Of a DNA stretch of 64,000 nt, positions 11,443 to 53,237 are shown piece by piece; the first letter of the stretch is position 1; every line of letters starts with the position of its first letter. The DNA comes from a virus. The stretch spans positions 32,001 through 96,000 of the IMG/VR virus record IMGVR_UViG_3300029448_000001; one strand, given 5' to 3'. Both the position numbers and the translations under genes were made by a program. Under the pieces are notes generated by a model that was not told where the DNA came from, did no database searches, and saw nothing but the letters and a program-made list of their open reading frames with translations.

Positions 11443-12306
11443 TTATAGAATATCATTAAGTTTATTTAAATCAGCACATGTCCAATCTTGATAGTGAACT
11501 TTAAGTTCTTCAGGCATCTTTATGAAATCTATTTTAGAGTTATGTTTAGTTTGTATTTCATGAGCAACATCAAGAAATGATTTTACTTTACCTGTGCCAC
11601 AATTATATATGCCGTTTACAGTATCAAATTTTTCTGCTAATTTAAATTTGATATCTAAGACTTCATCAACATGTATAAAATCTCTAAAAAAATTATCAGA
11701 ACCTTCAAAGACTTTACAAGAACCTGTTTCTAAAACTTGTTCTTCAAATTTAGTATAAGGACTAGCTTGGTCTCCTTTATGAGTTTCATTATTTCCGTAC
11801 ACGTTAAAATATCTGAGACCTTGTATTTTAGCTTCAGGCATTTTCTTTATAAGTCTTTCAACGTATACGTCAATTAAATATTTTGAATATGAGTAAAGAT
11901 TTAAAGGATTTAATTTATCACTCTCTTTACTTTTAGTTCCTTTTTCTACTTTTCCATACATACTAGCCGAACTAGCATATTGTATAGGAACGTCATGTCT
12001 AATACACTTTCGTATTAGTTTTTTAGTGAATTCATAATTTCTATTTAACACTAAGTTTCCATCAGTTTCAGTAGTAGAAGTTATTGCTCCCTCATGAAAA
12101 ACTTTTGTAACTTTATCCCATTCATTAAAATGTTTTATGAATACATCAGGATTAAAAAGTCTTTGAATGTCTGAACAATTTACGTTACTAAATTTTTGAG
12201 TTATGTCATCATAATCCTCAACTACCGCAAATTTAACTTTATCTTTTATTAATCTTTTAACTAAGTTTGATCCTATAAATCCAAACCCACCTGTCACTAT
12301 TATCAT
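11443..12306 (-). CDS. hldD: ADP-L-glycero-D-manno-heptose 6-epimerase
   Basis: MIIVTGGFGFIGSNL start (true start 12306), HEGAITSTTE, YASSAS, YxxSK, LRYFNVYG. Confidence 0.88.
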   Translation of the reverse strand: MIIVTGGFGFIGSNLVKRLIKDKVKFAVVEDYDDITQKFSNVNCSDIQRLFNPDVFIKHFNEWDKVTKVFHEGAITSTTETDGNLVLNRNYEFTKKLIRKCIRHDVPIQYASSASMYGKVEKGTKSKESDKLNPLNLYSYSKYLIDVYVERLIKKMPEAKIQGLRYFNVYGNNETHKGDQASPYTKFEEQVLETGSCKVFEGSDNFFRDFIHVDEVLDIKFKLAEKFDTVNGIYNCGTGKVKSFLDVAHEIQTKHNSKIDFIKMPEELKVHYQDWTCADLNKLNDIL

Positions 12307-12662
12307 GTCTGAGAGTCTCCTGGTTCTATTCTGTAATTGTCTTCTACTGAATCTGGCGTTGAAACTTCTAATATTGTTCCTTTCGTTAAACATATAAGTT
12401 GATGAGGAACACATGGTTTATTTCTCCACACATCTCCTCTATCAAGAACTGTTGAATGCTGTTCTGCGGTTTTAGTGTCAATCCATTTTACTGTAAACAT
12501 TCCCTCTAATACATACCAAGTTTCATCTTTTTCTTTATGAAAATGCATAGAAAATTTTTGACCTTGCTTATCAAATCTTAAAAATTTTCCACAATACTTA
12601 TCATTAGTTGCCCATATTAATTCAGACCCCCAACCTTTTTTTACTTCTCCATCAAGCCGCAT
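12303..12662 (-). CDS. Cupin, mannose-6-phosphate isomerase-like
   Basis: KGWGSE, FSMHFHKEKDETWYV, PHQL, EVST motifs. Confidence 0.8.
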   Translation of the reverse strand: MRLDGEVKKGWGSELIWATNDKYCGKFLRFDKQGQKFSMHFHKEKDETWYVLEGMFTVKWIDTKTAEQHSTVLDRGDVWRNKPCVPHQLICLTKGTILEVSTPDSVEDNYRIEPGDSQT

Positions 12663-13932
12663 TCTTAACCTTTTCTATAATTTTAGTTGTAGAGTGCCCT
12701 TCAAGAAGAGGTATAATGACAGTCTTTTTTACAATATCATGCCCTATAACATCTTCTTTTTTGTAGTCTCCACCTTTAGTTATTATATCAGGCTTTATTT
12801 TGTTTATTAAGTCAAGAGGCGTATTTTCTTCAAAAATTATTACTTCATCTACAAAATCTAAAGCAAGTAACATTTTCTTTCTATCTTCTTGATTTACAAC
12901 AGGTCTGTCATCACCTTTTATTCTTTTAACGCTTTCATCTGAATTCAATCCTACGACTAGTTTATCGCCTAGTTTTTTAGTTTTTTTAAGATAGTCAACA
13001 TGACCACTATGAAGCAAATCAAATACTCCGTTTGTAAATACAGTTTTTATTATTCCTAAGTCTTTTTGAGAAACAGAACTTGTTCCTTTTTTAGTAACTA
13101 CTGCTGATGCACCTTGATTTGCCAATTCTACAGCATCATTTACGCTATAATTTTTATCAATTCCATAAGCAATTGATGCCGTTACAGTATCACCAGCACC
13201 AGTAACGTCAAAGACTTCTTTAGCTATAGCTTTTCTGAATTTGAATTTATCTTTAGAAATTAAAATCATACCTTTATTTCCTAATGTAACTAATAAATAT
13301 TCAGCATTTACAGACTCTAAGACTGCTCTACCTTTTTCAATAATATCTAAATTATTATTACATTTTCCTACAGTTTGTTCAAACTCTTTTAAATTGGGTT
13401 TTAATAACCAACAATCTGAGTATTTTGATAAGTTGTTTTTAGGGTCAACTATAATTTTATTATTTGTCTTCTTTATATGATAAATAATATGATTCAATTT
13501 ATTACCTAGTGTTCCTTTTGCATAATCGCTAATTATTACGCAAGAGTATTTACTAAAATCTGTTTTGAGTATTAGATTAAACAACTGTTGGTTGTCATAT
13601 TTCAAATCATGGTCAATTCTAGCATAGTAATGGTTATTAGTATAAATTCTAGTTTTGTGGGATTTAAGACCATTAGAGGGTAAAACATTTTGTAGATTTA
13701 AATGAGTATTTCCTACAAGTATTTCATCTAGCCATGTTTTATCTAAAATCGCAAACAAATCAGTTTTAACTTTTAATTTTTTTAGATTTTGTGCTACGTT
13801 GCCTGCTCCTCCGGACAAAAACTTCTTGTGTGTGTATTCAATTACTGGAACAGGGGCTTCAGGACTTAATCTGCTACTCTCACCGTACAAATATTCATCA
13901 ATAATTAAATCGCCTATTACTGCTACACTCAT
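12652..13932 (-). CDS. hldE: Bifunctional heptose 7-phosphate kinase / heptose 1-phosphate adenylyltransferase
   Basis: RLSPEAPVPV, GGAGNVA, DYAKG, DVTGAGDT (kinase); FTNGVFDLLHSGH, KGGDY, GHSTT (nucleotidyltransferase). Confidence 0.92.
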   Translation of the reverse strand: MSVAVIGDLIIDEYLYGESSRLSPEAPVPVIEYTHKKFLSGGAGNVAQNLKKLKVKTDLFAILDKTWLDEILVGNTHLNLQNVLPSNGLKSHKTRIYTNNHYYARIDHDLKYDNQQLFNLILKTDFSKYSCVIISDYAKGTLGNKLNHIIYHIKKTNNKIIVDPKNNLSKYSDCWLLKPNLKEFEQTVGKCNNNLDIIEKGRAVLESVNAEYLLVTLGNKGMILISKDKFKFRKAIAKEVFDVTGAGDTVTASIAYGIDKNYSVNDAVELANQGASAVVTKKGTSSVSQKDLGIIKTVFTNGVFDLLHSGHVDYLKKTKKLGDKLVVGLNSDESVKRIKGDDRPVVNQEDRKKMLLALDFVDEVIIFEENTPLDLINKIKPDIITKGGDYKKEDVIGHDIVKKTVIIPLLEGHSTTKIIEKVKNAA

Positions 13933-13972
13933 ATTGCATTCTCCATTATCATAAATAGTCTAAAATGTCGTG

Positions 13973-13988
13973 TTTATTTATAAATAAA
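13973..13988. promoter_or_regulatory. Bidirectional T4-type late promoter
   Basis: Palindrome TTTATTTATAAATAAA gives TATAAATA on both strands between divergent hldE and gp13. Confidence 0.7.
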
Positions 13989-14012
13989 AAAGTATACTCT
14001 GGAGAAAAATAA

Positions 14013-39067: not shown

Positions 39068-39469
39068 ATGGCTTACAGCGATAAAGTTATAGACCATTAT
39101 GAAAACCCTAGAAATGTAGGGTCTATGGACAAGAGTGACCCTAGTGTTGGAACTGGTATGGTTGGGGCTCCAGCGTGTGGTGATGTAATGAAATTACAAA
39201 TTAAAGTTAGTGATGAAGGTATCATAGAAGATGCTAAATTTAAAACTTATGGTTGTGGTAGTGCTATTGCAAGTAGCAGTTTAGTTACAGAGTGGATTAA
39301 AGGTAGAAGCATAGAACACGCAGAGGAAATAAAAAATACAGCGATAGCTAAAGAGTTGTGTTTACCTCCTGTAAAAATACATTGTAGTATATTAGCCGAA
39401 GATGCTGTTAGGTCCGCAATAGACGATTACAAGAAAAAAAAGATTGAAGTTAAACAGGAGATTCTATAA
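39068..39469 (+). CDS. iscU: Fe-S cluster scaffold
   Basis: [43 protein letters not shown]. Confidence 0.96.
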
Positions 39470-39891
39470 TGTTTGATAAATTACTTTCAAGAAAAAATAA
39501 AGAAAAATCTGATGCAGATGAATTGTTAGATTTTTGTGATGAAGCTAGTACTACAGATAAAATGCCTGACCTTTTTCACGTTACAAAGGCGGCCGCTAAT
39601 AAAGTTTCATCACTAGTAAGCAATGAAAAGAATGCTAAAGGATTAAGAATATTTGTTCAAGGTGGAGGTTGTTCTGGTTTTCAATATGGATTTGCTTTTG
39701 CAGAGGAAATTGAGGAAGATGATACTGAGATAAAACAGCATGGAGTTTCAATAGTAGTTGATGCTATGAGTTATCAGTATGTAATGGGAGCAGAAGTAGA
39801 TTATAAAGATGACTTACAAGGTGCATCATTTGTAATTCGTAATCCAAATGCAACCGCTACTTGTGGGTGTGGTTCTAGTTTTGCATATTAA
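39469..39891 (+). CDS. erpA: A-type Fe-S carrier (ErpA/IscA family)
   Basis: [25 protein letters not shown]. Confidence 0.88.
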
Positions 39892-39901
39892 AGGAGATAA
39901 A

Positions 39902-40210
39902 ATGAAAAAATTATTGTTAATAACATTACTTTGTTTTTCAAATTTTGCAATGGCAGGGAATTCTAAATTAGGTGAAGCTAAATTTAAAATGAATTGTAAA
40001 CAATGTCATGGTCCAGCTGGAATGGGTATGGCAAGTTATCCTAAAGTATCTGGAAATCCAGTAGAATACACAATTGATAAATTGAAAACTTATCGAAGCG
40101 GTCAAGAGGTGGGACCTAATTCAGCACTAATGATAATGATGGCTAAACCTTTAAGTGATACTGATATAGAAAATTTAGCTGAATATCTTAAAAATGCAAA
40201 GAGAGACTAA
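39902..40210 (+). CDS. Periplasmic class I c-type cytochrome (c553/c4-like)
   Basis: ATG at 39902 after AAGGAG; signal peptide; CKQCH heme motif; distal Met; LSDTDIENLAEYL. Confidence 0.9.
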   Translation: MKKLLLITLLCFSNFAMAGNSKLGEAKFKMNCKQCHGPAGMGMASYPKVSGNPVEYTIDKLKTYRSGQEVGPNSALMIMMAKPLSDTDIENLAEYLKNAKRD

Positions 40211-40213
40211 CAA

Positions 40214-40807
40214 ATGGAAATAAATGAATTTATAATATCTTTAGCAGTAGATTTTTGGCAGTGGACAGTTTTAATTCTTTTAATCATACTAGGATTTTTA
40301 ATCAATTTGTTTGATAAAAAAATAGATAATAGAGTTAATTTTAAATACTCAGTATTTCCTCATATGAAACCTATACCTATTAAAACAAAAGGTAAAGGAT
40401 TCTTTAAAATGATTCTTATGTGGATATTTGGAGTCAGGCATTGGGAAATAGTGAAAGATTTTACTTTTTCATTAAAAGGTAAAAGATATGTAATACCAGC
40501 AGGTTTTAAATTTGATGGTGCAAGTATACCAAAATTTTTACATACTTTTTTATCCCCTGTAGGAGTTCTTTTAATAGGAGGTTTAATTCATGATTATGCC
40601 TATAAATATGAAACCTTGTTAAAAGCAAATAAAAAAGATACAATGGGAATTGTAACTCAAAAAAAAGCAGATGAAATTTTTAGAGATATTAATATAGAAA
40701 TAAACGGATTCTTTTTAATGAACTACTTAGCATACTACTCTTTAAGATTGGCAGGTTTTGTTGCGTGGAATAAACATAGAAAAGTAAATGCTAAAATTGG
40801 TAAATAG
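40214..40807 (+). CDS. DUF1353-like membrane-anchored protein
   Basis: IPAGFKFDGASIP, IHDYAY, ADEIF; N-terminal TM segment. Confidence 0.75.
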   Translation: MEINEFIISLAVDFWQWTVLILLIILGFLINLFDKKIDNRVNFKYSVFPHMKPIPIKTKGKGFFKMILMWIFGVRHWEIVKDFTFSLKGKRYVIPAGFKFDGASIPKFLHTFLSPVGVLLIGGLIHDYAYKYETLLKANKKDTMGIVTQKKADEIFRDINIEINGFFLMNYLAYYSLRLAGFVAWNKHRKVNAKIGK

Positions 40808-40821
40808 ATAAAGGTTGCATT

Positions 40822-41328
40822 ATGAAATTAAATTTAGTGAAAGAAACAAATCCAATATTATTTAAAGAGTGTGAAGATTTTAATTTTGAAAATCCTCAAA
40901 CTGACCCAATAGAATTAGCTAAAGATTTAAATGAGACAATGATTTACAATAAAGGATTAGGTCTATCAGCTAATCAAGTAGGTCTATCATGTAAAGTATT
41001 TGTAGTGAGAGTTGAAGATGAAACTCCGTGTGCATTTTTTAATCCTAGAATTGTAGACATATCTGAAAATAAAGTTTCAATGCAAGAAGGCTGTCTAAGT
41101 TTTCCTTTATTGTTTTTAAAAGTAAAAAGACCTGATGCTGTTAAGATTAGATACGAAGATGAAAATGGAAATACAATGACAAATACTTTTACAGGAATGA
41201 CTGCTAGAGTAGTATTGCATGAGTATGACCATCTAAAAGGTCAAGTCTTTACGAATGTTGCTCATAAGTTTGAAAGCGAAAGAGGTTTACGAAAACGCAT
41301 GATTTTAAAGAGAAAACTTAAAAAATAG
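40822..41328 (+). CDS. def: Peptide deformylase
   Basis: GLGLSANQVG, EGCLS, HEYDHL. Confidence 0.95.
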   Translation: MKLNLVKETNPILFKECEDFNFENPQTDPIELAKDLNETMIYNKGLGLSANQVGLSCKVFVVRVEDETPCAFFNPRIVDISENKVSMQEGCLSFPLLFLKVKRPDAVKIRYEDENGNTMTNTFTGMTARVVLHEYDHLKGQVFTNVAHKFESERGLRKRMILKRKLKK

Positions 41329-47852: not shown

Positions 47853-48306
47853 AGACGTAAAGATGCAAATGTTAGGTCAGTTAGGTGAAGCCATAGTTCA
47901 AAATTATTTACAAGATATAGGACATAATGTAAGAAAGTCGGTAAATACTTTTGACCATGAAAAAGATTTTACTGTAGACGGAAGACCAATAGAGGTAAAA
48001 ACTCAAGTTCCTTTCTTCTCAGAAAGTGCATTTACAGTTAAGCCTAATCAATTACCAAAATGTCGTAATGTTGATATGTTATTTTTTGTGGCAGTACCAA
48101 ATACAAAAGGTACGTATAAGGATTTTTATGGTGGTCGGGTTTATCAAGTTGATCCTAAAAAGGCGAGATGGAAAACAAGAACGGTATCTGGTACGAGAAG
48201 AATGAAAATTCTGCCTATTGAACAAGATGCAGTTCAGTTAGTACATACAATTTTAGATAAAAGTATTTTAAGGCAAATGGAAGAACTATCCGTGAGTGAA
48301 ATATAA
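47845..48306 (+). CDS. Putative PD-(D/E)xK nuclease
   Basis: GQLGEAIVQNYL...KDFTVDGRPIEVKT; inserted between gp44 and gp62. Confidence 0.55.
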   Translation: MNKDVKMQMLGQLGEAIVQNYLQDIGHNVRKSVNTFDHEKDFTVDGRPIEVKTQVPFFSESAFTVKPNQLPKCRNVDMLFFVAVPNTKGTYKDFYGGRVYQVDPKKARWKTRTVSGTRRMKILPIEQDAVQLVHTILDKSILRQMEELSVSEI

Positions 48307-48668
48307 TGAATGTTTTTGATTATTTAAATTCTATCAATCATAATAAAACTGATTTGGTGAAAAGTGAAAAGTTTGATGAAAAAGAATATAATCCTTTTAT
48401 AGTAAACAAAGGACTATCCTATTTTATTGATACCATAATATTCGCTAATGATATGAATATGTCTTTTGATTTGAATAAAAAGGCACAATATTTGTATTTG
48501 CTAAATAGTGTTAGACCTAGAAAAAGATATTCTAAATGGTTTAAAAAAGATAAAGCGAAAGATGTTGAGTGGATTTCCGAACACTATGGTTATAGTCATA
48601 AAAAGTCAAAAGAAATCCTAGAAGTTTTAAACAAAAAACAAATTTCGCTAATAAAGGAACAACACTAA
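48306..48668 (+). CDS. gp62: Clamp loader small subunit
   Basis: DYLNSIN, YNPFIVNKGLS, RKRYSKW, YGYS. Confidence 0.92.
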   Translation: MNVFDYLNSINHNKTDLVKSEKFDEKEYNPFIVNKGLSYFIDTIIFANDMNMSFDLNKKAQYLYLLNSVRPRKRYSKWFKKDKAKDVEWISEHYGYSHKKSKEILEVLNKKQISLIKEQH

Positions 48669-48679
48669 GAAAGAATGCT

Positions 48680-49087
48680 ATGATTGGAGTAGAGAATTTA
48701 CTAGAAGTTGAATTAGTTAAAGAAGATGATTTTTTAAAAGTACGGGAAACTCTTACTAGAATAGGTGTGGCTTCCAGAAAAGATAAGACTCTTTATCAGT
48801 CTTGCCACATATTACATAAGAGAGGTAAATATTACATAGTACATTTTAAAGAGTTGTTTGGGTTAGATGGGAAATCTACAGATTTTACGGATAATGATTT
48901 ATCTAGAAGAAATGCAATAACTAAATTACTAGCAGAGTGGAATCTAGTGCAAATTGTTAATGAAAATATAAAAGAGGAGCCTGTTGCACCTTTATCACAA
49001 ATAAAGATTATATCTCATAAAGATAAAGATGAATGGAATTTGGTTGCTAAGTATAATATAGGTAAAAAAAGAGAAAACTTGTCTTGA
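48680..49087 (+). CDS. regA: Translational repressor
   Basis: DDFLKVRETLTRIGVAS, LYQSCHILHK, HFKELF. Confidence 0.96.
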   Translation: MIGVENLLEVELVKEDDFLKVRETLTRIGVASRKDKTLYQSCHILHKRGKYYIVHFKELFGLDGKSTDFTDNDLSRRNAITKLLAEWNLVQIVNENIKEEPVAPLSQIKIISHKDKDEWNLVAKYNIGKKRENLS

Positions 49088-49118
49088 TTTTATAATATTT
49101 TTTTTGTAGAGTATAGTT

Positions 49119-49331
49119 ATGGCTAATAATAAAAAAGTTTATGATTGCGATTTGCACTTGAGAATCACAAAAAAACAAAGAGATGCATTAGACTTTGTGG
49201 CTGACCAGAAAAATGTCAGGCCTTCTCAAGTTGTGAGAGAAATCTTGAATCAATCTCTTCCTAATTTAGAGAGAGATGTAAGAACCCAGAAGGGTGTAGT
49301 AGTTGATCCATTGAGTGGTATTTTTTCTTAA
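49119..49331 (+). CDS. Ribbon-helix-helix-like DNA-binding protein
   Basis: LHLRITKKQRDALDFVA...PSQVVREIL; promoter TTGATT-N17-TAGAGT at 49084-49112. Confidence 0.6.
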   Translation: MANNKKVYDCDLHLRITKKQRDALDFVADQKNVRPSQVVREILNQSLPNLERDVRTQKGVVVDPLSGIFS

Positions 49332-49352
49332 TTTTATATCATAGGAGTCTTT

Positions 49353-49553
49353 ATGAAAAAGCTGTCCCAGTTTCAAAAAGTCCTCAGTTACTTGCGAGGC
49401 AAAAAACGTACTTTGACAAGGTCTCAAGCCATGCAAAGATTCAAGGTCAAAAATTTACCTGCTAGAATTAGTGAAATAAGACAAGCTGGTTATAAGGTAA
49501 ATAAAGTGAAAAATAGAGTAGGAACAACTGCATATTCTATAGTTTCACGCTAA
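49353..49553 (+). CDS. Small winged-helix DNA-binding protein
   Basis: SQFQKVLSYL...LTRSQA..RF.V.NLPARISEIRQAGY. Confidence 0.7.
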   Translation: MKKLSQFQKVLSYLRGKKRTLTRSQAMQRFKVKNLPARISEIRQAGYKVNKVKNRVGTTAYSIVSR

Positions 49554-49560
49554 TTTTTGT

Positions 49561-49635
49561 TATAAATAAAAGCGATACGCCTACCAAGGGTATCGCTTTT
49601 TATTTTATTAACTCGCTTAATTTAAGGAGACTATT
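49561..49635 (+). promoter_or_regulatory. hsp20 leader: late promoter, terminator-like hairpin and ROSE-like SD-sequestering hairpin
   Basis: TATAAATA; AAAAGCGATAC/GTATCGCTTTT stem; CTC-G-CTTA pairs with TAAG-GAG. Confidence 0.65.
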
Positions 49636-50121
49636 ATGACAAACCTAGCATTACAGCCTTTTGGCGATGTCTTTGACAAATTCTCAAAATCTTTTATTGG
49701 TAGTGATTCAGTTTATGATAATATGCATAAACTTCATGATGACTTAACCAAAAATATTCCAAACTATCCCCCTTATAACATTCGTAAGGTTGAAGATAAT
49801 AAGTATGTTATCGAACTTGCTTTGGCAGGATTCGCAAAACAAGACTTAGAAATTCTTCTAGAAGAGAATATGCTAAAGATTACAGGAAAAACTGTTGAAG
49901 ATTCCTCGGAAAACTTCTTATTCAAAGGAATAGCAAATAGAACTTTCACTCGCTCCTTTGCTCTTGATGAACAAGTTGAAGTAAAAGATGCAGAGATGTT
50001 GAATGGGTTGCTTAAAGTTTTTCTGGAAAGAATTATTCCAGAACATAAGAAACCTAGAAAGATTGATGTTAAAGATGAAAATGGTGAGGTTGCAAGTTCT
50101 AAGAAAATAGAAAAGAAGTAG
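49636..50121 (+). CDS. hsp20: Small heat shock protein (Hsp20/IbpA-like)
   Basis: NYPPYNI, IELALAGF, KGIANRTFTRSF, NGLL, IPEHKKPRKI. Confidence 0.95.
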   Translation: MTNLALQPFGDVFDKFSKSFIGSDSVYDNMHKLHDDLTKNIPNYPPYNIRKVEDNKYVIELALAGFAKQDLEILLEENMLKITGKTVEDSSENFLFKGIANRTFTRSFALDEQVEVKDAEMLNGLLKVFLERIIPEHKKPRKIDVKDENGEVASSKKIEKK

Positions 50122-50123
50122 CC

Positions 50124-50156
50124 AAAAGGGGAACAACAATGTTCCCCTTTTTTATT
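50124..50156. terminator. Bidirectional intrinsic terminator between convergent hsp20 and pqqA
   Basis: AAAAGGGGAACA-ACAA-TGTTCCCCTTTTTT. Confidence 0.85.
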
Positions 50157-50228
50157 TTAAGTAGAAGCAATATACATAGTAACTTCAAACCCAAATCGCA
50201 AATCAGTAGCAGTAGGTTTTGTCCACAT
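50157..50228 (-). CDS. pqqA: Pyrroloquinoline quinone precursor peptide (23 aa, not in ORF track)
   Basis: Translates to MWTKPTATDLRFGFEVTMYIAST; W-x-K-P, D-x-R-x-G-x-E-V-T-x-Y with ExxxY core; SD AAAGGA upstream. Confidence 0.92.
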   Translation of the reverse strand: MWTKPTATDLRFGFEVTMYIAST

Positions 50229-50352
50229 GTTTTTTCCTTTTAAAAAGTTAGTATTGATATGAGTAATAGACTCATGTACAATATGTATATGACTTTTTAA
50301 AATAATCGTCTAATGAAAAGTATGAGTTTTAACAAAATAAGTATAAACACTA

Positions 50353-52833
50353 ATGAAATTTTACACTAACTTTTTAAGATATGGTAATCGAATTTTTATT
50401 CGAGGCTATAGTAATGGAAAACAATTCAGCGATAAAGTTGAATATAATCCTGTCCTATACTTTCCTACAAAAGAAAAAACTAAATTCAAAACCTTACAAG
50501 GTGAATATGTAAAACCTGTTCCTCAAGCAAATATTAAAAGTGCATTAGAAGTTATTAAGAATTATAATGAGATAGAAAATTATCAAGTCTACGGTTCTAC
50601 TAATTTTCCTTATGTTTATATAAATGAAACGTATACAGGAAAAGTAAATTATGATGTATCTCAAATAAAAATAGCTAATATAGATATTGAAGTTGCTTCC
50701 GAAAATGGATTTCCTGATGTTGACTTTGCTTGTGAAGAGGTAACAGCAATTACAATTAAACTGAAAGATATTTTTTATGTATTTGGTTGTGATGAATATT
50801 CTAACAATAAAGATAATGTAAAATATTATAAATGTGATTCGGAATCTGATTTATTAAAAAAGTTTTTAAAATTATGGTGTCAACATAGTCCTGATGTAAT
50901 TACAGGTTGGAATGTAAGATTTTTTGATATTCCTTATTTGCACAATCGTATGTGTAAAATTTTAGGAGAATCCGAAACTAAAAATTTATCACCATGGAAA
51001 ATAGTTGAAGCTGATAATATATTCATTAGAGGTAGTGAGCAAAAATCATATAACATTTATGGCGTAACAACTTTAGATTATTATGAACTTTATAAAAAGT
51101 TTACATATACTCAACAAGAAAGTTATAAATTAGACCATATTGCTTTTGTAGAGTTAGGTGAAAAAAAATTAGATTATTCTGAATATGAATCCTTACATAC
51201 TTTGTATAAAAATGATTATCAGAAATTTATTGATTATAATATAAAAGATGTAGAGTTGGTTGATAAGCTAGAATCAAAAATGAAACTTTTAGAACTTGCT
51301 TTTGCTTTGGCTTATGATGCTAAAACTAATTTTGTTGATGTGTTTACTCAAGTAAGAATGTGGGATTGCCTAATTCATAATTATTTAATTAATAAAAATA
51401 TTGTTGTTCCTCAAAAAAGAGTTACAAGAAAAGACGTACAGTATGCAGGTGCGTATGTAAAAGATCCTATAGTTGGTATGCACGATTGGATTGCTTCTTT
51501 TGATTTGAATAGTTTGTACCCTCATTTAATTATGCAATATAATATTTCACCTGAAACAATCATGTCTAATACGGATATGCCTACAGATATTGAGTATTAT
51601 CTAAAAGAATCTAATGAAATAAAAAAAAGTAAATATTGTGTTGCGGCAAATGGTACTTGTTTTTCCAAAACAAAACAAGGATTCTTACCTGAGATGATGG
51701 AAAGTATGTATGGTGAAAGGTCTGAGTATAAAAAGAAAATGATTTTAGCTGAAAAAGAATATGAAAAAACTAAAGATAAAAGTTTAGTTAATGATATCTC
51801 TAGATACAAGAATATTCAAATGGCAAAAAAGATTCAACTAAATTCAGCTTATGGTGCCTTAGGTAATGAGTATTTTAGATTTTTTGATGTTAGACAAGCT
51901 GAAGCAATTACGTTGTCAGGTCAGTTAAGTATTAGATGGATTGCTAATGATTTAAATAGATATTTAAATAATTTATTAAAGACAGAGGATAACGATTATG
52001 TTATAGCCTCTGATACTGATTCCGTTTATATAAACTTTGGACCATTAGTTTCAAAAGTTTTTAAGAATGAAACTGATAAAAATAAAATTGTAGATTTTTT
52101 AGATAAAGCATGTTCCGAAAAAATAGAACCATTCATTGACAACTCTTATGAAAAATTAGCGAAAAGACAAAATGCTTTTTCGCAAAAGATGATTATGAAA
52201 AGAGAAGTTATATGCGATAAAGGAATATGGACAGCTAAGAAAAGATATATTTTAAATGTTTGGGATAGTGAAGGTGTAAGATATGGCTCTGCAAAATTAA
52301 AAATGTCGGGTATAGAGGCCGTTAAGTCGTCAACGCCTTATGCATGTAGAGAGAAGATTAAAGATGCTCTCAATGTTGTTATGAATGGTAATGAAAATGA
52401 ATTTCATTCTTTTGTTGAAAAAACTAAAAACGAATTTAAAAAGTTATCTTTTGAAGATATTGCCTTTCCTAGAAGTGTATCTAATATTAATAAATTTAAA
52501 GACAAAGCACACATTTATGGTAAAGGTACTCCTATTCATGTTAGAGGTGCATTATTATTCAACACATTAGTAAACAAGAATAAATTAGAAAAGAAATATG
52601 AACTTATACGAAATGGGAATAAAGTTAAATTTTGTTATTTAAAACTTCCTAATCCTATTCAAGAAAATGTTTTAGCTATAAATAACATATTACCTAAAGA
52701 ATTTAAACTTGAAGAATATATTGATTATCAACTACAATTTGAAAAGGCATTTTTAGAGCCTTTAAATATCATTGTGGATAAGATTGATTGGACAACAGAA
52801 AAAGTAAATACACTAGAGGGGTTTTTCTCATGA
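50353..52833 (+). CDS. gp43: Family B DNA polymerase
   Basis: DIE ExoI, FDLNSLYP, KIQLNSAYG, SDTDS, KKRY. Confidence 0.97.
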   Translation: MKFYTNFLRYGNRIFIRGYSNGKQFSDKVEYNPVLYFPTKEKTKFKTLQGEYVKPVPQANIKSALEVIKNYNEIENYQVYGSTNFPYVYINETYTGKVNYDVSQIKIANIDIEVASENGFPDVDFACEEVTAITIKLKDIFYVFGCDEYSNNKDNVKYYKCDSESDLLKKFLKLWCQHSPDVITGWNVRFFDIPYLHNRMCKILGESETKNLSPWKIVEADNIFIRGSEQKSYNIYGVTTLDYYELYKKFTYTQQESYKLDHIAFVELGEKKLDYSEYESLHTLYKNDYQKFIDYNIKDVELVDKLESKMKLLELAFALAYDAKTNFVDVFTQVRMWDCLIHNYLINKNIVVPQKRVTRKDVQYAGAYVKDPIVGMHDWIASFDLNSLYPHLIMQYNISPETIMSNTDMPTDIEYYLKESNEIKKSKYCVAANGTCFSKTKQGFLPEMMESMYGERSEYKKKMILAEKEYEKTKDKSLVNDISRYKNIQMAKKIQLNSAYGALGNEYFRFFDVRQAEAITLSGQLSIRWIANDLNRYLNNLLKTEDNDYVIASDTDSVYINFGPLVSKVFKNETDKNKIVDFLDKACSEKIEPFIDNSYEKLAKRQNAFSQKMIMKREVICDKGIWTAKKRYILNVWDSEGVRYGSAKLKMSGIEAVKSSTPYACREKIKDALNVVMNGNENEFHSFVEKTKNEFKKLSFEDIAFPRSVSNINKFKDKAHIYGKGTPIHVRGALLFNTLVNKNKLEKKYELIRNGNKVKFCYLKLPNPIQENVLAINNILPKEFKLEEYIDYQLQFEKAFLEPLNIIVDKIDWTTEKVNTLEGFFS

Positions 52834-53237
52834 GCATAAGAAACATACCAGAAGAATATTTAAAATTTAGAAAAGAAGATGATTATGGATTTAGTGCTGT
52901 AGATGAATCATCACTTCAGACTACAGTAAATCCTGATACATTGGAAACTGAAGTTATTGCAAACTCGATTTCTACATCTAATGAAAACATATCAAAGTTA
53001 GAAAATAAAATAGATGGCATCATGAATCTTTATAATAAAAATAAATTAGGATTAGATGCTGAAAGAAAACAAATGCAAGAGGAAGTTGCATCTAAACTTG
53101 TTAAGTTAGAACAGCTAATTATGCCTTTGTTAGTAAATTTAATGAAGAATCCTGAGAAAGAATATATTTACTGGCCTAACAGAATTGAAAAGTTGCAAGA
53201 ACAAGTAGATAAAGTTTTAGAATTGACTAGAGATTAA
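52830..53237 (+). CDS. Conserved hypothetical protein
   Basis: DYGFSAVDE, PLLVNLMKNPEKEYIYWPNR; ATG at 52830 overlaps the gp43 stop. Confidence 0.7.
   Translation: MSIRNIPEEYLKFRKEDDYGFSAVDESSLQTTVNPDTLETEVIANSISTSNENISKLENKIDGIMNLYNKNKLGLDAERKQMQEEVASKLVKLEQLIMPLLVNLMKNPEKEYIYWPNRIEKLQEQVDKVLELTRD

Follow-up and report, generated by a model that had tools for sequence, protein, structure and literature searches.

The cofactor PQQ is made from the precursor peptide PqqA, whose N-terminal leader (a Trp, a Pro and the residues next to them) is recognised by the chaperone PqqD. PqqE, acting with PqqD, cross-links a Glu and a Tyr of PqqA, after which PqqB, PqqC and peptidases complete PQQ, and each PQQ made uses up one PqqA peptide. 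The linkage of pqqA to pqqBCDE is typical, not obligatory. In Methylosinus trichosporium, pqqA is unlinked from pqqB-E and was missed by the gene caller, and it is expressed at ~12,000-14,000 units versus 160-370 for pqqB-E, i.e. its transcript is 30- to 80-fold more abundant than those of the enzyme genes (PMC3615186).

Viral copies of pqqA have been described before. Coutinho et al. 2020 (Microbiome 8:163, PMC7678222) found PqqA in phages of methylotrophs from Lake Baikal (population VP_266), and proposed the same role that we favour below, that of an auxiliary gene for the PQQ-dependent methanol oxidation of the host; a 2026 study of sediments counts viral pqqA, pqqD and pqqE among auxiliary genes (PMC13188868). 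The paper on the OM43 phage Melnitz names PQQ only as a medium supplement (PMC9004378). The initial annotation of the locus studied here had doubted whether a viral pqqA would be new, and with good reason, since viral PqqA was reported in 2020 (PMC7678222). The principle is therefore not new, and the gene is common in phages of methanol-oxidising bacteria. What the present case adds is that the carrier is a marine T4-like phage, that its PqqA is of a minority peptide type pointing to a different host clade, that the gene is placed in inverted orientation in a shared hotspot, and that it co-occurs with genes for Fe-S assembly and cytochrome c. Like the phage studied here, VP_266 encodes both PqqA and a peptide deformylase. 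VP_266, however, is a freshwater population that has a methanol dehydrogenase, whereas ours is a marine T4-like phage whose record yielded no dehydrogenase; moreover, its peptide is of the 'DL' type, which is in the minority (three of the 119 viral contigs listed), and its gene lies inverted between hsp20 and gp43.

The window, i.e. the whole stretch of 64,000 nucleotides that was analysed, corresponds to bases 32001-96000 of a 143,979-bp IMG/VR virus record that is estimated to be 80% complete and has a G+C content of 32.9%. The features in and around pqqA are the following, G001 and G002 being two cellular genomes (MAGs) that are described below:

49636-50121, plus strand: hsp20, small heat-shock protein (PF00011, 64.4 bits; phrog_432)
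50124-50151, both strands: 12-bp hairpin common to the convergent hsp20 and pqqA (terminator scan, folding)
50157-50228, minus strand: pqqA coding sequence (translation; PF08042; TIGR02107; 62 of 72 nt identical to the operon copy of G001)
50235-50240, minus strand: Shine-Dalgarno-like AAAGGA (read from the sequence; AAAGGAG lies at a similar distance in G001 and G002)
50282-50289, minus strand: TATACATA, a 7/8 match to the T4-type late promoter TATAAATA (putative only)
50353-52833, plus strand: gp43-type family B DNA polymerase (phrog_262, 1100.8 bits; PF00136; PF03104)

The pqqA coding sequence starts with an ATG at 50228-50226 and consists of 23 codons followed by TAA; its translation is exactly the peptide that the initial annotation had read from a minus-strand ORF. 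The peptide matches the PqqA models PF08042 (41.6 bits, curated cut-off 21.1, model positions 1-19 of 19) and TIGR02107 (39.4 bits, curated cut-off 20, model positions 1-21 of 21), scoring about twice the cut-off with both, and the match (E 1e-10) is far above chance. The search with family models that had been proposed as a check thus gave a clear answer. With its 23 residues, the peptide falls within the PqqA size of ~20-30 residues, and the predicted ExxxY pair is present as Glu15 and Tyr19. The leader residues Trp2 and Pro5 are present as well, and residues 1-14, the putative site of PqqD recognition, are identical to those of the PqqA of the G001 clade, which is encoded beside pqqD. By comparison with the two curated models, it is confirmed that the ORF belongs to the PqqA family (PF08042/TIGR02107).

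The phage copy stands alone. Searches by tblastn with queries from Acinetobacter and G001 detected none of PqqB, PqqC, PqqD and PqqE in the 143,979-bp record, and neither radical SAM (PF04055) and PqqD-family (PF05402) domains nor a methanol/ethanol-type PQQ dehydrogenase (TIGR03075) were matched in it. The absence of pqqBCDE, which had been claimed for the window, hence extends to the whole record, although it is not absolute because the record is estimated to be 80% complete. The phage pqqA thus lacks linkage to pqqBCDE, which does not exclude it from the PqqA family. The cellular genomes examined contain two to six pqqA places each, so unlinked extra copies are normal in bacteria.

The genes around pqqA, all of them on the plus strand, encode the gp45 clamp, the gp44/62 clamp loader, RegA, a winged-helix protein, Hsp20 and the gp43 polymerase, and pqqA sits antisense between the last two. 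The gp43 polymerase shares 55% identity with cyanomyophage polymerases and 50% with the polymerase of Melnitz, a myophage of OM43. Judged by these identities, the phage is a distinct T4-like (Kyanoviridae-like) lineage. Megablast of positions 48000-53000 against the phage collection gave no match, i.e. no close phage relative, and the window contains no tRNA gene. The phage is marine, and DNA nearly identical to its own is present in 18 runs that belong to nine studies (2014-2025). In two of these studies, DNA contigs span the junction of hsp20 and pqqA with 0-4 differences, and the arrangement of these genes is therefore not an assembly artefact.

It should be noted that the window also contains a run of host-like genes at 39068-41328 on the plus strand, which encode IscU (PF01592, 179 bits), an A-type Fe-S carrier (PF01521), a class I cytochrome c (PF00034), a DUF1353 protein and a peptide deformylase. 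The IscU shares 80-81% identity with that of small betaproteobacterial genomes. These genes may serve PqqE, which is an Fe-S enzyme, and the transfer of electrons in the periplasm.

The same gene is present in other phages. A tblastn search of ~50,700 phage records with the peptide, which had been suggested as a further check, returned 12 matches, ten of which are in true phage records: Venkman, MEP301, MEP401, MEP402, P19250A, four Melnitz isolates and one uncultured podovirus from a freshwater spring. Nine of these ten are cultured Methylophilales phages, and every cultured Methylophilales phage returned has the gene. The other two matches, both labelled 'Acinetobacter phage MD-2021a', were discarded, being bacterial pqqABCDE operons filed as phage; one of these records (CAKLQF020000010.1, 104210-112272) contains ppk and the full pqqABCDE operon, and looks like bacterial chromosome. 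In each of the ten true phage records, pqqA stands alone, is 23-24 codons long and has a ribosome-binding site. In none of them is it annotated as pqqA: the position either lacks a CDS or is covered by a hypothetical protein on the wrong strand. The latter applies to the GenBank entries of Melnitz (locus L002, 3961-4056) and of the Manatee Spring podovirus (locus L004, 2067-2195), where a 'hypothetical protein' stands opposite an unannotated pqqA of 23-24 codons. We dropped a plus-strand ORF of 34 codons that overlaps pqqA in the window (50139-50243), which is a call of the same kind. The shortness of pqqA, which has 23 codons, thus keeps a real and selected metabolic gene invisible to annotation.

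The pqqA genes of the Methylophilales phages Venkman, MEP301, MEP401/402, P19250A and Melnitz are 68-79% identical to that of the window (tblastn) and, like it, stand alone. Their peptides differ from it in having Glu-Met instead of Asp-Leu at residues 9-10, and most of them end in ...EMRFGFEVTMYVMNK; the Glu-Met motif also occurs in genomes of the same order that are 1.3 Mb and 2.5 Mb in size. Melnitz is a T4-like (Kyanoviridae) myophage, like the phage of the window, but its pqqA is located elsewhere, beside tRNA-Leu and baseplate genes.

A search of IMG/VR with a degenerate DNA pattern showed that the gene is present in at least 120 stretches, of which 119 matches were recovered. These recovered matches, at least 119 in number, are without exception clean ORFs of 23-25 codons starting with ATG, and none of the 119 matches listed has pqqB-E in its flanks. 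They contain 107 distinct 54-nt cores. Because the search patterns require the Glu and the Tyr, the invariance of these residues in the matches is uninformative; at the pattern-free residues 12, 14 and 18, the entropies at codon positions 1, 2 and 3 are 0.30, 0.19 and 0.80 (119 matches listed), and the pattern-free codons are conserved across viral and cellular copies. This variation at third positions argues for selection on the peptide across the viral copies. Residues 9-10 are Asp-Leu, the type found in the window, in three of the 119 viral copies listed and Glu-Met in 92.

Among the matches listed are 12 T4-like contigs that have pqqA between regA and gp43, either before or after hsp20, and whose RegA is 63-72% identical to that of our phage; some of these contigs have ~1 kb of sequence between hsp20, pqqA and the polymerase. 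In all 12, pqqA is co-oriented with its neighbours, whereas it is inverted in our phage. Because of this inverted orientation and the different peptide type, the pqqA of the window was probably captured separately, or replaced another copy, at an insertion hotspot that these phages share.

The cellular counterpart of the phage gene was sought by scanning one genome per prokaryote species for the motif W..P...DLRFGFEVTMYI. The matches listed belong mostly to Methylococcales and Cycloclasticus, and the two best among them are a marine MAG of 1.4 Mb (G001) and a 'Burkholderiaceae bacterium' MAG of 1.8 Mb (G002), in both of which the first 21 of the 23 residues of PqqA are identical to those of the phage peptide. 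In both genomes pqqA heads pqqB-C-D-E, and both encode a TIGR03075 dehydrogenase (663 and 697 bits, respectively; cut-off 480). The phage copy resembles this operon pqqA in being preceded by an AAAGGAG-type ribosome-binding site and followed by a hairpin after the stop codon, but it differs in standing alone, in its last two residues and in the sequence of the hairpin. G002 is listed among the relatives of G001, together with seven more genomes (G006-G012; 1.1-1.9 Mb, 33-40% G+C at the locus), each of which has one to three pqqA copies of this peptide type. The identity of 62 of 72 nucleotides between the phage gene and the G001 operon copy amounts to 86%; of the codon changes, six are synonymous and two are non-synonymous, the latter both in the tail after the Tyr. 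The last two residues of the phage peptide differ from those of every close cellular copy, and the tail after the Tyr varies among the cellular copies too. Among 401 genomes sampled from the same order, four have the Glu-Met type, which is typical of OM43 and LD28 phages; two of these four are 1.3 Mb in size and have three copies each.

The closest listed cellular PqqA peptides are thus encoded in genomes with pqqABCDE and a methanol/ethanol-type dehydrogenase, which fits the suggestion of the initial annotation that the host is a methylotroph with PQQ dehydrogenases. A likely host, mainly because of the 23-residue peptide type shared with the G001 clade, is a streamlined, low-G+C marine betaproteobacterial methylotroph of that clade, and not of the Glu-Met-type OM43/LD28 group. 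Neither the identity of the phage IscU (80-81%) nor that of its cytochrome c (32-41%) distinguishes the G001 clade from OM43/LD28-type genomes.

The T4-type flanks, the 86% nucleotide identity to a cellular copy and the recurrence in other phages characterise pqqA as a host-derived gene that is under selection in a genuine phage genome. We consider it likely that the stand-alone pqqA of this marine T4-like phage is an auxiliary gene that supplies the precursor to the PQQ enzymes of the host. That the peptide is translated during infection, processed by host enzymes and beneficial to the phage, as well as the identity of the host, is what we infer from these data. According to the mechanism that we propose, the phage would make only the 23-residue precursor peptide, Glu15 and Tyr19 of which would be cross-linked by the PqqD and PqqE of the host, and host PqqB, PqqC and peptidases would then finish PQQ. 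The cofactor would be loaded into a periplasmic host enzyme of the methanol dehydrogenase type, and the flow of energy would thereby be kept up during infection. As host transcription falls, the PqqA substrate would run out long before the enzymes decay, and a pqqA gene of 72 nt would be a cheap remedy for this shortage. That pqqA alone is carried would be explained by the consumption of one peptide per PQQ, and by cells expressing pqqA far above the levels of the enzyme genes.

Marine T4-like phages are known to carry 'bottleneck' genes, such as psbA of cyanophages, whereby the phage brings a component with a fast turnover and the host provides the rest. By analogy, the phage pqqA would follow the same logic, as only the consumed component of an energy system of the host is carried, with the difference that psbA encodes a protein subunit, whereas the product of pqqA is a substrate peptide that is destroyed in the making of a small-molecule cofactor. 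If true, phages of methanol oxidisers would sustain a cofactor pathway by giving just its consumable substrate, a variant of the psbA logic that would bear on the carbon flow through marine methylotrophs. In addition, the peptide type may help to assign uncultured phages to methylotroph hosts. A more far-reaching view, which we regard as doubtful, is that pqqA forms part of a coordinated phage programme of PQQ respiration, in which IscU and the A-type Fe-S carrier would metallate PqqE and an exported class I cytochrome c would be the acceptor downstream of the dehydrogenase, and that the sequence of the viral peptide follows the host clade closely enough to be a marker for assigning hosts; in this case, it would indicate a clade of streamlined methylotrophs among the marine betaproteobacteria that is uncultured and differs from the OM43/LD28 type.

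Supply of the precursor is not the only use to which such a peptide could be put. It might be a decoy that diverts or blocks PQQ synthesis via PqqD/PqqE, or a small peptide with an unrelated role, and both the carriage of the peptide without any enzyme and the two C-terminal residues that are unlike those of every close cellular copy would agree with this. However, binding PqqD alone would need just the leader, yet the Glu, the Tyr and the residues between them are as conserved as in cellular PqqA (the Glu and Tyr being preset by the search patterns), which argues against a mere decoy; the tail is variable among the cellular copies as well, and a lytic phage would have no obvious gain from a host with less energy. 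We therefore give this explanation little credence.

We find it equally hard to believe that pqqA is a neutral passenger, i.e. a useless and untranslated scrap of host DNA that was taken up together with its hairpin. The gene is indeed inverted with respect to all its neighbours and to the 12 syntenic T4-like contigs, it is located in the variable regA-gp43 region and it lacks a recognisable promoter. Nevertheless, its frame, start, stop and ribosome-binding site are all intact, and the six synonymous changes versus two tail changes that separate it from the cellular copy indicate selection on the peptide. Moreover, several phage lineages unrelated to one another have retained the gene, as have at least 119 viral contigs, among which it varies mostly at third codon positions, and the sole difference reported within the ORF of the window, at 50196 and carried by diverged contigs, is synonymous.

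The Shine-Dalgarno sequence AAAGGA that had been claimed is present at 50240-50235 on the minus strand, six bases upstream of the ATG. The hairpin at 50124-50151 begins five bases past the TAA stop codon and is among the two terminator-like sites found by the terminator scan versus 0.4 expected. It folds with -18.5 kcal/mol on the minus strand and -19.8 kcal/mol on the plus strand (z -4.7 and -5.3, respectively), and none of 200 shuffled sequences folded as well; on the minus-strand side, the G+C core is followed by only four U. As it is strong on both strands and also ends the convergent hsp20, it is bidirectional in form, as had been proposed.

The initial annotation had also pointed to a late-like box upstream of pqqA. 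The sequence TATACATA is indeed located at 50289-50282, but its role as a promoter is not supported: it is a 7/8 match that is not enriched, with six copies in the genome versus ~21 expected from base composition. Since the box is a variant no commoner than chance, the claim of a late promoter for pqqA is weak. The scan for sigma-70 promoters gave as many sites as expected from shuffled sequences, with no convincing site for pqqA. The canonical TATAAATA, which heads the other operons, is strongly strand-biased, with 18 copies on the plus and two on the minus strand, where base composition predicts ~27 per strand; 15 of the 20 copies are followed after 13-111 nt by an ORF of 60 codons or more, and each of the two on the minus strand precedes a gene of that strand. 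This placement of TATAAATA (e.g. at 13979-13986 of the window) fits T4-type late promoters, and one such box is located at 49561, ahead of hsp20. Just upstream of hsp20 there is also a sub-threshold match to the ROSE_3 RNA thermometer (49571-49641, plus strand; 32.3 bits versus a gathering score of 43, E 1.5e-4, Rfam).

That the element acts mainly as RNA, i.e. as terminator or insulator or in the antisense control of hsp20 read-through into the polymerase, the ORF being incidental, is hardly credible in spite of the strong hairpin serving both strands and of an unstranded RNA-library contig that spans the 3' end of hsp20, the hairpin and pqqA, because matches to two curated PqqA models at E 1e-10 would not arise from an incidental ORF, the Rfam scan of 49400-50500 gave no family at its gathering score, and the co-orientation in the 12 related contigs means that antisense is not a general role.

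The RNA-library contig just mentioned is a marine metatranscriptome contig of 446 nt that is 100% identical to the phage and covers 49824-50265, including the whole of pqqA. Its end at 50265 falls between the ATG, which is 37 nt away, and TATACATA, which is 17 nt away, and the DNA contigs run on past this point. The contig comes from one study and an unstranded library, could be hsp20 read-through or carried-over DNA, and cannot show a start, so it is a weak hint of pqqA expression, and its end a weak hint of a promoter at TATACATA. The RNA-library depth of hsp20-pqqA versus that of the polymerase is contig-derived and cannot rank their expression. Finally, a metatranscriptome contig of run X20 with a depth of 84 matches only the 5' part of pqqA (50182-50228, seven differences), and continues into a different upstream region with an AAGGAG of its own; this contig probably stems from a strongly expressed pqqA that belongs to a different phage, or to a bacterium, of that sample.
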